A stretch of DNA of 64,000 nucleotides from Octopus vulgaris (lineage: Eukaryota): the NCBI GenBank assembly GCA_951406725.2, contig OX597820.1, positions 118,916,001-118,980,000 of the forward strand, given 5' to 3'. The notes under the pieces are model-generated. The model searched no databases. It was not told the origin of the DNA and saw only the letters and a list, made by a program, of their open reading frames with translations. The position numbers were made by a program, and so were the translations under genes. This document shows, piece by piece, positions 6,197 to 44,532 of the stretch (its first letter is position 1; each line of letters opens with the position of its first letter).

Positions 6197-6751
6197 GTAC
6201 ACATAGATTTGTGTGTATGCTTTTATTTTTTTTAATTGTTCTCCAGTTGAGATATAATCTCTAGCCGCCCGCAGATCATGACTTTCCCATAACAATTTAA
6301 ACAGCATCACATGGTAACTATATATACAGGTATATATACATGTAAACATTCAGGTAACAGCAAATGTTTTTATCTATGTCTATATAAGCTGGCATTTGTG
6401 CATCTTAGCGAATATTAATTGGCTTACTTATATATCTTTATATATACACAAACAAATATACATACACATACACATACACACACATGTATATGTATGAATA
6501 TGGACATGTATGTATGAATGTATTCCATAAATTATGTATATTTGGTCATGCTACAGGCAATACTTCTACAACCGTTTTCGATATTTTTACATTTCCTTAA
6601 CTCGATTGTAATTACACTTTCATTTCCAAATTTATACAAGTCTGATCTCTGTTGTAACATCTTCCTATTTTAATTTTTTGAATTTATACCATAAACGAAG
6701 GTATTTTCTGCAAAGAATCAAATCTCTATCATTACAAATTAGTTGACAAGA

Positions 6752-17656: not shown

Positions 17657-19399
17657 ACTAAATAGTTCAACTAATGAGTTTTAAGATGATGTAAAACTTG
17701 CGACCATTGTATACTAAGAAGATATACTAACTATTGTTTGTGTTTTTTTTGTGTGCATGTTTGTTTCAGTTTCCTAAAATGTGTTCAGCAGTGTTTTATG
17801 GGTTAATGATACACGTTTAGTTTGTGTCGATGTCGTTTACTACCTCACAATAGGAATGTTTATAACATAGGGAAAACCCCAAGCATTGGGGCGAACTGGC
17901 TGCCACTTATATAGCATACAATACTTTACAAGTTTATTTTATCGATTTGGACATGATGAAAGCAAAGTCAACTTCAACAGAAGTTAAACTTTAAACCTAA
18001 TGAGACGCTACTAACTACTTGCAAGGAATTTTGGTCGACACATTAAAGATGCTGCTCATCTGATGCATCAGATAATGATTTCTAAATTAGGTAGAGTGCC
18101 ACAGATTTTACATTTAACCTTCGCAGGATTTTAGGTTACAATTGGTCGGATTTCAACCAAAGTTTTATACTCAGAAACTGGAATGAGTTCTGTTATTTGT
18201 ATGGTTCGTGGGTGCCAGTTCAAACGTTTTGGCTATGTTGTTCAATTTTCCGAGTTAGACTCTGCAACGCGATGCAACGGCGCATTTCCCCCCACACCTA
18301 ACCTGACAGCCGTTGGAATATTTACATGAAAAATGTATTTTTGAGCGCGAGAAATCAGAATGTAGCATGTTTTAGATAAATTTTTATTGCAATTCTTAGG
18401 GACCATGTATAGGTAGGTGTCCCTCTAACTATTCAAATTGAGACGGCTGTTCTGCACATTTGGTGCTTAGCTGTTAATCAACGTTATAAAGAAGAGCAGA
18501 TTAGAGAAAGAGAGTGAGCGAGGGGGCAGAGAAAGCGGAAGGAAGAGAGAAGTAAGAGAAAGCGGGGAGAAGGGTATATTTCAGACGATTTCATTCTTTT
18601 TAAGGAAGAATTAATTCCAAGAATTTAGCTTTTGAACTGGAATATTAACAGTGAAAATGAAGTGAAAAGGAAAGAATGCATCAATGGGAGGTGATGGATA
18701 GAGAGAACATTACGGAGCAGGTAAGCAGGGAATATTGTGTTTACGGTAGAATAGACAACGAAAAGAGAGTAAGCTGCTTTAGAGCCAGTATCATCTGGGA
18801 TGATGATATTGAAAAAGAAAGCAATTCTTGGTTGACAGAGCAGGGTTTCTGTCACAAATGCGAAAACTGCATTGCTTTTCTCAAAGCTCAATGAAACGTC
18901 ATTACTGTTTAATACTCTGCTTTCTATAAGTCTAAGGCTCTTGGTTACGTGACATATGATACGACAATTGTCATGCTGATGAGGGCTGTTGCGACAGAAA
19001 CATCTTCGCACGACTGTCCTTTATTCCCAGACCATAAGGGTGTCATATTTGGAAATTTCTTGAATCTTGACATTATCTCCCCTTCTCAAGTGCAGGTGGT
19101 CATAATCACCATTTGGTAATTATGGTACATCCTCTAGAGGCGGTAATAATTTTAATATATATATATACATATTGTCCTTGTTTTGTATACATTCGAAGCT
19201 TTCTTCCAAGGAATCTAATGCGCTTAGCTTAAGTTTTTCCTTGGGGCTGGCCAGATTGGAGCAATCCCAAGATTAATCAGCCGAATTTGCGAGGATGATC
19301 CGGTTCTTGACTGAAGATTGAAGGCTTCGAATGTCCCGTCCGTGTTTTTTTGTATCGTCTTCAAAATGTTTTGCGTTCTTGTCCCAGTTTGTATTTTTT

Positions 19400-19475
<76 letters not shown>

Positions 19476-19613
19476 CGGAGATGTACTCGCATAGCAAATA
19501 ATTTGATCTGAGATCGTGTGCTGAAACGAAAACAATTGCAGCGTGGGAGGTGTTTATAAGCCATTTAAGAAACACACAAAAGCCGTTCGATTCACTCCAA
19601 CATTTAAGTTTAA

Positions 19614-19663
19614 TTTGTCAAAATAGTTTCGTCGCTAAAATCCGCGACCTGTTCACTGACAAA
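19614..19663 (-). ncRNA. Minimal type I hammerhead-like ribozyme with G3-C8 core variant
   Basis: TTTGTCA-GTGAACA-G-GTCGC-GGATTTTA-GCGAC-GAAA-CTAT-TT-TGACAAA: 7-bp stem I and 5-bp stem II. Lies in insert 19471-19676 between (TA)n runs. Confidence 0.7.
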
Positions 19664-19672
19664 AATCCGGGC

Positions 19673-19736
<64 letters not shown>

Positions 19737-20390
19737 TATGTTGCTTATATATTTTAAATTACTCACCAAAATGTATGTATTTACATATCTCAGTGTCTTT
19801 GTGTAATGCGTGGGTGTACAAATTCCTGATTTTTAAATACCTTAAAATGTGCTTCCTTTTGGTTGTAAAATATCAGAAATTATCATATGTAGCAATAACG
19901 TCAGAAATTTTACTTCTACGATTAAATAGCAAATAATTATCTCCTGCTTGCAGAAACGCAAATAACTGAATAAATAGCGAACGGGACACAAACGTAAATA
20001 GGCTGAATAAACCATGAAAGCTATACAAATAGATAAACAACGGAATATATACAATATATTTATCTTTACCGAATATTTTTATGTATTTTAAAGAATAATA
20101 AGTATGCAAATATTTGGCAGGCAAATATTTAGACGTATATTTAGACAAATATTTTGAAAAATATGTTTTATGAATTTCTGTATGTTAAATTTACAGCGAC
20201 AAACTTTCATATTCTGGTTGAGAAATCTCGCGAAAGAATTGTTGATCGAATACATGATGAATTGTTTAATGGAATTGTGAATCAATGTGGCTATTTTGGT
20301 TTCAGTATGTATCACAAAACATCCTAGCTAATACCTTATAGAAATATGACATTTTCTCATCGCTGCCTGATACCAATGATGTCATTTCTA

Positions 20391-21050
20391 AGACGGTGAG
20401 CTGGCAGAATCGTTAGCACGCCGGGTGAAATTCTTAGTGATATTCCGTCTGACTTTACGTTCTGAGTTCAAATTCCGCCGAGGTCGACTTTGCCTTTCAT
20501 CCTTTCGGGGTCGATTAAATAAGTACCAGTTACGCACTGGGGTCGATATAATCGACTTAATCCGTTTGTCTGTCCTGGTTTGTCCCCTCTATGTTTAGCA
20601 CCCTGTGGGCAATGAAGAAATAAATATTGGTTGCTCAATCTAACGCGGCGAGCTGGCAGAAACGTTAGCACTCCGGGCGAAATGCTTAGCGGTATTTCGT
20701 CTGCCGCTATGTTCTGAGTTCAAATTCCGCCGAGGTCGACTTTGCCTTTCATCCTTTCGGGGTCGATTAAATAAGTACCAGTTACGCACTGGGGTCGATA
20801 TAATTGACTTAATCCGTTTGTCTGTCCTTGCTTGTCCTTTCTGTGTTTAGCCACTTGTGAATAGTAAAGAAACAAAGACAGACACACGGATTAAGTCGAT
20901 TATATCGACCCCAGTGCGTAACTGGTACTTAATTTATCGACCCCGAAAGGATGAAAGGCAAACTCGACCTCGGCGGAATTTGAACTCAGAACGTAACGGC
21001 AGACGAAATACGGCTACGCATTTCGCCCGGCGCGTTAACGTTTCAGCTAA
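20391..21050. mobile_element. Cluster of three SINE A copies (+ 20391-20622, + 20645-20872, - 20870-21050)
   Basis: Near-identical family A bodies; the second and third copies are inverted with almost no spacer. Confidence 0.92.
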
Positions 21051-29095: not shown

Positions 29096-29194
29096 TTATG
29101 TATAAAATGTATATTATGGAGATGTACTTGCATAGCAAGTGACCTGATCTGAGATCGTGTGCTGGAACGAAAACAATTGCAGCGTGGTAAGCGT

Positions 29195-29245
29195 TTTGTC
29201 AGTGAACAGGTCGCGGTCTGAAAGCGACGAAAATATTTTGGCAAA
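29195..29245 (+). ncRNA. Second copy of the G3-C8 hammerhead-like motif
   Basis: TTTGTCA-GTGAACA-G-GTCGC-GGTCTGAAA-GCGAC-GAAA-ATAT-TT-TGGCAAA; palindromic AAAATATTTT at stem III. Confidence 0.7.
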
Positions 29246-29956
29246 TTAAATTTAAATATTAAAGTATATTTAAAATTCAATAAAAGGCTACACGGTGGTG
29301 GCCAGCTGGCAGAATTGTTAGGCCGGGCATAATGCTTAGCGGCATTTTGTCTCGCTTTACGCCCGGAGTTCAAATTCCTCTGAGGTCCGCTGTGCCTTTC
29401 ATCCTTTGGGGTCGATAGAACGAGTACCTGTTGAGCACTGTAACTACCACCCCAAGAAAAAAATTACTGGTCTTGATAAAAAATTTGAAATCAGTATAAC
29501 AACCAGTATTTATAATGCAAAATATTATGGAAATGAAAGTATGACTAAGATATACAACACGAAATGTTTGTGGTTAAGAAAAAAGTAAAACGAAAAGAAC
29601 TATTAAGATCTTAGAGTCCCCTTATCGCAAGGTCGATGAACAAAAATATTTCTGTAATTTTAGGCCGGAGTATTTGGCTTTTCTTCATTGTTATATCTTC
29701 GAGGCCACTGGATGGTGTTTGTAACAATGAAGCAGGAATAATAGCCGGAGTGACAGCAAGTAAAACAGTCGGAAAATACCAACAAAATTAATAGACATTT
29801 TTTTTTTTGAGAGAAACAACATTTTGTGAAATATTTTTCTTCTACATATTTCTCCGTACATTTTCGTTGATTAAATGAAGTGTGAGCAATCAGTTGGAGA
29901 AGAAATGAAATAAAGCAGATTTATAAAATGACGCCACCATATGTATGACCACTAAT

Positions 29957-44105: not shown

Positions 44106-44532
44106 TACATTATTTACATTATTTACATTTGAGGGATATTTGTCCTCATCTTGTTTGATGTTAACACAACGTTTCGGCTGATATACCCTCCAGCCTTCAT
44201 CAGGTGTTTGTACTCTCTGTGTTTAGCCCCTTGTGAGTAGTAAAGAAATAGGTATTTCGTCTGTCGTTACGTTCTGAGTTCAAATTCCGCCGAGGTCAAC
44301 TTTGCCTTTCATCCTTTCGGGGTCGATAAATTAAGTACCAGTTACGCGCTGGGGTCGATGTAATCGACTTAATCCATTTGTCTGTCCTTGTTTGTCCTCT
44401 CTGTGTTTTTACTACCTTGTGGGTAGTAACAAAAATAGGTGTCTTGATGAAGACTGGAGGGTATATCAGCCAAAACGTTGTGTTAGAACCAAACAAAATG
44501 AGGACAAATATCCGTCAAATGTAAATAATGTA
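44106..44532. mobile_element. Inverted pair of hammerhead-SINE 3' ends (intact motif 44163-44208, minus strand) with a SINE A (44214-44440) at the centre
   Basis: Minus: AACAC-CTGATGA-A-GGCTG-GAGGGTATAT-CAGCC-GAAA-CG-TT-GTGTT. Right arm 44444-44532 is a mutated plus copy. Both end in (AATGTAAAT)n. Confidence 0.85.

Follow-up and report, generated by a model that had tools for sequence, protein, structure and literature searches.

A natural G3-C8 core in predicted minimal hammerhead ribozymes of an octopus Penelope-like retrotransposon

Two hammerhead motifs with a G3-C8 core

The sequence analysed here (the window) is a 64,000-nucleotide stretch of Octopus vulgaris contig OX597820.1. A sequence-only reading had placed in it two hammerhead motifs with the core GUGAACA, at 19614-19663 (-) and 29195-29245 (+), and both are present there. 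The two motifs, together with a canonical comparator, comprise the following features.

19614..19663, minus strand: hammerhead copy 1, minimal type I, with core GUGAACA, an inserted G and loop 3 CUAU (AUAU in the family)
19663-19657 with 19620-19614, minus strand: copy 1 stem I, 7 bp
19656-19650, minus strand: copy 1 core GUGAACA
19656 (G3) and 19651 (C8), minus strand: copy 1 flipped tertiary pair G3-C8, assigned from sequence
GUCGC/GCGAC, minus strand: copy 1 stem II, 5 bp
19630-19627, minus strand: copy 1 GAAA
19622-19621, minus strand: copy 1 U16.1-U17
Between 19621 and 19620, minus strand: copy 1 predicted cleavage site, 3' of U17, by hammerhead numbering
29195..29245, plus strand: hammerhead copy 2, minimal type I, of an older loop-2 type
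29202 (G3) and 29207 (C8), plus strand: copy 2 flipped pair
29232-29237, plus strand: copy 2 palindrome AAUAUU, intact
29237-29238, plus strand: copy 2 UU
44163..44208, minus strand: comparator, a canonical C3-G8 minimal hammerhead of another repeat family, with an inserted A, palindromic A-CG-U and UU

In both copies stems I and II are closed, G10.1-C11.1 is formed and the topology is type I; the core positions U4, G5, A6, N7, A9, G12, A13, A14, A15.1-U16.1 and H17 are all present. The literal consensus CUGANGA, with C3 and G8, is replaced, while a Watson-Crick 3-8 pair is itself retained. The copies have stem II (GUCGC/GCGAC) and the core in common, and the register of positions 3 and 8 in copy 1 is fixed because sister families read CUGAAGA within the same stems. 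The stems, GAAA and UU described by the sequence-only reading were recovered; left unmentioned were an extra G between A9 and G10.1 in both copies, one G.U in the 7-bp stem I of copy 2, and a stem III that consists in both of A15.1-U16.1 alone around a 4-nt loop. Also missed were the Penelope-like element (PLE) described below and a dimer palindrome, AAUAUU, formed by A15.1-U16.1 together with the loop, which is found in the family consensus and in copy 2 and is broken in copy 1, where a C replaces the first loop-3 A.

Copy 1 folds into both predicted stems at -14.7 kcal/mol (z -3.3) and copy 2 does so at -13.2 kcal/mol (z -2.0), and the hammerhead fold persists in a 140-nt context. A type I descriptor allowing any Watson-Crick 3-8 pair found three sites in the window, the third being the canonical C3-G8 motif at 44203 (-), against none in 100/100 approximate dinucleotide shuffles (n=100). 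The comparator motif is present also in loci L099 and L102. Rfam covariance models reported no hammerhead family at copy 1, copy 2 or the 44203 comparator at E values up to 10, and for the whole window they gave microsatellite miRNA noise among the 150 matches listed of 300. It had been suggested that searches built on CUGANGA would miss the whole family; such descriptors indeed cannot find it, but Rfam misses the canonical-core motif as well, so that this failure stems from the minimal architecture and not from the G3-C8 swap.

The missing Rfam match at either copy is what might be expected of hairpins arranged by chance in an AT-rich repeat. We regard such an origin as extremely improbable, since no shuffle yielded the descriptor, the same stems flank CUGAAGA or CUGAUGA in homologous repeats, the motifs lie where PLE hammerheads lie, and a canonical-core motif escapes Rfam too. 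Chance resemblance was rejected on the evidence of the C3-G8 sister family.

The motifs belong to a dispersed repeat family

The two copies are 87% alike over 67 nt and are evidently members of one transposon family. The earlier proposal that their agreement amounts to covariation is consequently not borne out: the copies share descent, and their agreement is not independent evidence. A 17-base core pattern had 6,746 exact matches genome-wide, with each head-to-head pair counted twice, and its reversed control had one. Patterns with one more 5' base fixed returned 236 matches with another base at position 3 and 400 with G3 and another base at position 8. G3-C8 is the family state, found in about 91% of the counted cores.

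The repeat is about 210 nt long (212 nt in the reference). In 63 arms from loci chosen by core alone, 3' ends fall near reference position 205-212 in 32, near 150 in 23 and elsewhere in eight, and a TA run stands behind 28 of the 63. A tail delimited by a pair of favoured 3' ends, together with truncated arms in inverted orientation, marks PLEs (PMC8557442, PMC11167929), and the same combination can be read here as a Penelope-like signature. In the window, the family is represented by the following features.

19471..19677, minus strand: short solo copy, from the youngest subfamily, of the PLE terminal repeat with its pLTR 5' part, hammerhead and tail
19471..19533, minus strand: PLE tail, the stretch between the two preferred 3' ends
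29112..29190, minus strand: inverted tail-bearing arm of the copy 2 insertion, an 89% match to reference 128-212

The copy at 19471..19677 (-) sits as an insertion in a (TA)n run, with TA arrays at 19399-19473 and 19676-19739 flanking it, and shares 96.5% identity over 201 nt with the repeat that follows the open reading frame of locus L210. The arm at 29112..29190 (-) stands head-to-head with the hammerhead arm at 29191-29260. Across the loci, repeats occur solo, head-to-head or joined to an ORF, an arrangement other than that of non-LTR retrozymes, whose non-coding units, each bearing a type I hammerhead, stand head-to-tail in tandem. Three same-strand copies at C2:17908125-17908491, with a spacing of 166 nt, possibly form a retrozyme-like tandem. 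At L140, both arms share a two-base core change (GUGAGAA), which arose before or during insertion or by conversion between the arms.

The parent is a Penelope-like element with RT and GIY-YIG domains

We traced the parent element by walking upstream from rare longer copies of the repeat, which led to GIY-YIG and reverse transcriptase (RT) fragments. A protein search for the parent frame gave 150 scored matches, and the repeat lies downstream of the GIY-YIG match, in the same sense and within 1.5 kb, at 18 of the 30 loci examined. L210 carries a 5'-truncated open frame of 839 aa, with RT and GIY-YIG domains, whose end is about 1 kb upstream of the hammerhead. Identity to L210 is 98% in five other long copies and 72-88% in older ones, and an inverted 5'-truncated copy lies upstream in five of ten long loci.

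The L210 frame has the motifs DKSG (134), YVDD (455), VYQIKC (731) and YIGET (748), a CX3CxxC linker at 710, two cysteines between VY and YIG, and an EH 763 and QH 780 region in the endonuclease; the CCHH endonuclease motif and the CX2-5CxxC linker of Neptune and Nematis are therein both represented. Pfam and PDB sequence searches of this frame returned no match, and Pfam searches of 24 aligned related proteins identified RVT_1 in five and GIY-YIG in four. An alignment-based structural model reached a pLDDT of 86 (32 for a single-sequence model), and its top three fold matches are telomerase RTs, at modest TM scores of 0.28-0.32. The nearest named homolog is a protein labelled Octopus vulgaris, at 54% identity. 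Judged from these motifs, the host is a young EN+ Penelope-like retrotransposon with one frame that joins a telomerase-related RT to a C-terminal GIY-YIG domain, and the linker points to the Neptune or Nematis clade.

Another candidate for the parent, the GIY-YIG frame beside L016, was rejected: it lies on the opposite strand, and the family of which it is a member has a U3-A8 hammerhead of its own. A 3.4-kb triple on C2 is a tandem duplication with no PLE frame of at least 150 aa.

The 3-8 pair differs among sister families

To find relatives of the G3-C8 family (family A), we left positions 3, 7 and 8 free and fixed the end of stem I, UGA, A9 and the 5' strand of stem II. The 18 matches comprise two of family A and 16 of three relatives, and the family counts below include loci from two further searches. 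Family D, an older sister with C or U at N7, a shorter loop 2 and a 2-nt loop 3, has C8 in all seven members, as G3-C8 in four and A3.C8 in three. Family B is C3-G8 in five of seven, with one U3.G8 and one G3.G8, and family C is U3.G8 in six of nine; in the family C loci L044, L045, L223, L235 and L236, U3.G8 is apparently the usual state. In family B (L047, L225, L230 and L234), stem I pairs only with a 3-nt bulge beside its first pair, a possible tertiary contact site. At L174, the repeat behind a 48%-identical PLE frame combines U3-A8 with stem II GUUGC/GCAAC, a double change, and this old copy has A at position 12.

On a tree inferred from 27 rows with positions 3 and 8 masked and L042, L231 and L232 left out, families A and D, which are about 60% identical, group together at 96/94, whereas the root and deeper order are weak. 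Downstream of the hammerhead, A and D are 70% identical over 107 nt (E 2e-11). Over 31 rows, the 3-8 pair is standard in 22 (GC 11, UG 6, CG 4 and UA 1), against 43% when shuffled and at most 39% when slid, although the rows are hand-picked and related and the comparison thus gives no probability.

Outside the octopus, two homologs on metagenome contigs (L240 and L242, with 47% and 36% protein identity) have C3-G8, the inserted G and UU. A metagenome scan yielded 66 loci, six of which have a hammerhead by descriptor, all C3-G8; L240 and L242 are the only close ORF homologs among these loci. The metagenome contigs L294-L297, with only weak RT similarity, carry canonical type I hammerheads with a palindromic loop 3. 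A second, large and unrelated GIY-YIG family of PLEs in the octopus has a U3-A8 hammerhead about 240 nt behind its frame (L094, L102, L103, L104, L106 and L107), with 6,971 first-look candidates, and its copies L082, L083 and L097 have C at position 4.

Since the other relatives carry C3-G8, U3-A8 or U3.G8 and the outside homologs C3-G8, the G3-C8 swap is probably derived and probably arose once. The pair was kept between A and D while N7 and both loops changed. Real covariation at 3-8 is seen only between sister families, and for G3-C8 it is weak, as probably a single event.

Mismatched cores have probably transposed and nearly all copies run through the predicted cut

Among the 100 matches listed of the 400 with another base at position 8, 39 have G8, 44 U8 and 17 A8, and among the 100 listed of the 236 with another base at position 3, seven are C3.C8. 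One older subfamily (n=100) contains 75 G3-C8, nine G3.G8 and one C3.C8 core (9 vs 1, p 0.02). The G3.G8 copies are spread among older G3-C8 branches, with none in the youngest clade, and the youngest loop type is found in 0/20 retrieved G3.G8 loci. G3.G8 occurs in both arms of four insertions (L033, L308, L314 and L315), which indicates that such cores probably transposed, copied from RNA. Single mutants at 3 or 8 are dead in a PLE hammerhead in the available part of PMC11167929, and by that analogy the G3.G8 copies should be inactive. A role of G3.G8 as ancestral intermediate of the swap was rejected, given this scatter over older branches, its absence in the youngest and the C8 already present in sister family D; partial reversion is the more likely origin.

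Frequent copying from cut RNA would leave a cluster of 5' ends after U17. We therefore classified by eye all 38 matches with a non-T before the start of the predicted product: nine are point changes, 17 clean junctions, six ambiguous junctions with microhomology to the inverted arm, and six internal rearrangements. At a control site 9 nt downstream, about 16 of 92 matches are junctions, so that the predicted cut shows no excess of 5' ends over this control (p 1.0 or 0.34), and nearly all copies run through it intact. Together, transposed mismatched cores and the lack of a genomic trace of cutting count against strict selection. The missing excess matches the anole element, whose insertion uses mainly uncut RNA and persists in hammerhead mutants (PMC11167929, available part), and would be compatible with cleavage followed by decay or re-ligation.

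These counts bear on two rival readings. The first holds that the motif is a fast monomeric ribozyme in which tertiary contacts between loop 2 and the flank of stem I drive constitutive cutting of the element RNA. The 7-bp stem I, extendable by flanking pairs, the 8-9 nt loop 2 and the persistence of the fold in its 140-nt context are consistent with this, but it is hard to reconcile with a one-pair stem III, a loop 2 that varies freely between subfamilies and copies that nearly all run through the site, and we consider it very unlikely. The second holds that the motif descends from a hammerhead whose cleavage is no longer needed and now acts as a folded handle for the element protein or for translation, with 3-8 drifting and nothing but folding, or hitch-hiking on successful source elements, preserving G3-C8. 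The excess of transposed G3.G8, the A3.C8 and U3.G8 states of sister families and the lack of a 5'-end pile-up argue for it, as do the unaffected insertion in vitro of hammerhead mutants and the success of Naiad PLEs without canonical hammerheads in the parts of PMC11167929 and PMC8557442 available to us. Against it, the dominant state is Watson-Crick in families A, B, D and E, though three different pairs occur; GAAA, the palindromic loop 3, UU and the 3' strand of stem I, which the search pattern did not fix, persist in family D while N7 and the loops change; and none of the 20 retrieved G3.G8 loci carries the youngest loop type. On balance, we consider this non-cleaving handle unlikely, although a serious contender.

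Short copies share a 5' end and inverted arms can differ in subfamily

Among 76 arms selected by core, one extends upstream of AG-AUGCAGCAC and 29 stop there; the other 46 start nearer the core or belong to sister families. Of the 16 short arms that keep the AG, ten show a preceding G at a position occupied by C or U in long copies (p 0.0002, background 20%). Copying of the cap as an extra G is known for LINEs, and we infer that the common 5' point is the start of a capped transcript at that A and that the extra G represents a copied cap. In L210 this start lies at 6421 and the predicted cut at 6479, 58 nt apart. Alternatively, the point may be the 3' end of an intron, as in Drosophila Penelope, where an intron ends at a comparable point (PMC2377424, available part); a branch-point-like CUAAC, a pyrimidine tract and AG stand just before the common 5' end at L210:6398-6422 and in the long copies L142-L175. 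Among the 100 matches listed of 141, no shared upstream sequence other than the unspliced one was found that might represent a spliced first exon.

The arms of inverted pairs were compared in 45 rows, with L122 counted twice and 11 unclassified. Three of the 34 classifiable pairs have clearly different subfamily loops, four differ by one diagnostic base and 27 agree. At L013, L028 and L228, the arms of one inverted insertion carry different loop-2 subfamily sequences. Arms with different subfamily loops suggest that a single insertion complex likely brings two RNA templates together, as a palindromic stem III requires. The intermolecular stem III alone contributes only -0.2 kcal/mol, and in the most favourable two-strand fold the strands exchange stems I and II in its place.

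Comparison with known hammerheads and Penelope-like elements

Published work is cited here for the portions of each source available to us. The octopus family resembles the minimal hammerheads of PLE pLTRs described by Cervera and de la Pena (2014, PMC4209133) in its type I topology, the insert between 9 and 10.1, G10.1-C11.1, the lack of a real stem III, the palindromic loop 3, the U-H site, the thousands of dispersed single or inverted copies and the position behind an RT-EN frame; all the minimal-hammerhead features given there are present save the identity of positions 3 and 8. It differs from them in its G3-C8 core, in the inserted base (G in the octopus family, L240 and L242, against a consensus H) and in a stem I of 7 bp against 3-5. 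The 56 motifs of Fig. S3 in that source, which include no cephalopod, comprise 53 C3-G8, two U3-A8, one U3.G8 (from Saccoglossus) and no G3-C8, which its descriptor could not have found.

The same swap has been made in the laboratory. Frangieh et al. (2024, PMC11167929) engineered the C3G/G8C double mutant in the hammerhead of PAc, a Poseidon PLE of the anole; it regains part of the cleavage activity and depends on protein, in line with the partial rescue stated by the sequence-only reading. PAc also has two 3' ends bounding a tail, AT-rich targets and uncut RNA as template, but there the swap is man-made and the clade Poseidon, whereas the octopus swap is natural and belongs to an element with a CX3CxxC linker. 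Compensatory change at 3-8 is known in nature from U3-A8 covariants (Perreault et al. 2011, PMC3088659, the only natural variant that its text reports; Schistosoma Cercyon PLEs). U3-A8 requires two transitions and can be reached via U3.G8, whereas G3-C8 requires two transversions, in which purine and pyrimidine trade places, with a mismatched intermediate.

The EN+ elements Neptune and Nematis (Craig et al. 2021, PMC8557442) share with the octopus element the order of RT, CX2-5CxxC linker and GIY-YIG domain, the two histidines and two inner cysteines of that domain, copies that are inverted and truncated, a tail and microsatellite targets. Unlike them, the octopus element has about 1 kb of microsatellite-rich 3' sequence ahead of the hammerhead; the clade likeness is one of motifs, not of a reference tree.

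Engineered G3-C8 hammerheads occur in PMC11167929, PMC8495972 and PMC3884650. No natural G3-C8 was found in the available parts of PMC6765202, PMC6155905, PMC7229834, PMC7761336, PMC11014351 and bioRxiv 10.64898/2026.07.22.740005, which does not establish its absence from print; the comparison does not extend to Lunse et al. 2017 on variants of PLE hammerheads, where an earlier report would most likely stand, or to Arkhipova et al. 2017 and Przybilski and Hammann 2007. In the literature compared, the swap is thus described only as a lab-made rescue; natural U3-A8 is known and natural G3-C8 was not found. The motif is not a new ribozyme class, and its chemistry was anticipated in vitro.

A slow, gated ribozyme is the probable reading

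Given the fold, the family state of the core, its place behind an RT-GIY-YIG frame and the core variants of sister families, we think it probable that this minimal type I hammerhead with a flipped core cleaves slowly after U17, gated by dimerisation through the AAUAUU palindrome and by protein; that cleavage is selected we infer. Minimal hammerheads cleave poorly in vitro (PMC4209133, available part). The swapped pair would retain the geometry and the 2'-OH of position 8, at a reduced rate. With U17 and a swapped pair combined, cleavage is possibly slower still.

According to this model, transcription likely starts about 22 nt before G3, and two element RNAs would pair via AAUAUU and be cut slowly after U17, probably with the aid of protein. 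A cut in the upstream repeat would remove a 58-nt capped leader, and one in the downstream repeat would release the unit from read-through RNA. Short copies would arise as cDNAs whose synthesis is primed at the tail and passes an intact hammerhead up to the RNA 5' end, most copies being reverse transcribed from RNA that was uncut or re-ligated at the site. Cleavage would then likely be late or regulatory and not required for each insertion.

A bolder version, which we hold only tentatively and think more doubtful than the model itself, is that this is the first natural catalytically active G3-C8 hammerhead. Its lineage would have passed through a valley of inactive mismatches and, over some 40% of divergence, held on to the pair as a switch 58 nt from the cap that is slow by design, gated by protein and triggered only if two element RNAs share one RT complex. 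If true, a clade that samples C3-G8, U3-A8, U3.G8 and G3-C8 would be a natural mutational series for the role of PLE hammerheads in vivo, and a population of GUGANCA hammerheads would lie hidden in animal genomes.

The role of PLE hammerheads is an open question in the portions of PMC7761336 and PMC8557442 available to us. What serves biochemists as a rescue control is, in this young element, the natural core, and related families of the same genome add other pairings along with some mismatches. These natural core variants in one genome are therefore ready constructs for asking whether selection acts on cleavage rate, on dimerisation or on fold alone. Hammerhead surveys limited to CUGANGA or UUGANAA miss thousands per genome.

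Other repeats and frames near the insertions

The window also holds two tandem 252-nt SINE-like units at 20387-20851, a repeat that is frequent in the retrieved loci, and a further SINE-like copy lies at about 29290-29450, downstream of hammerhead copy 2. At L019:1571-2116 (+), an uninterrupted 182-aa frame, which we take to resemble a dCMP deaminase, directly adjoins a repeat insertion.
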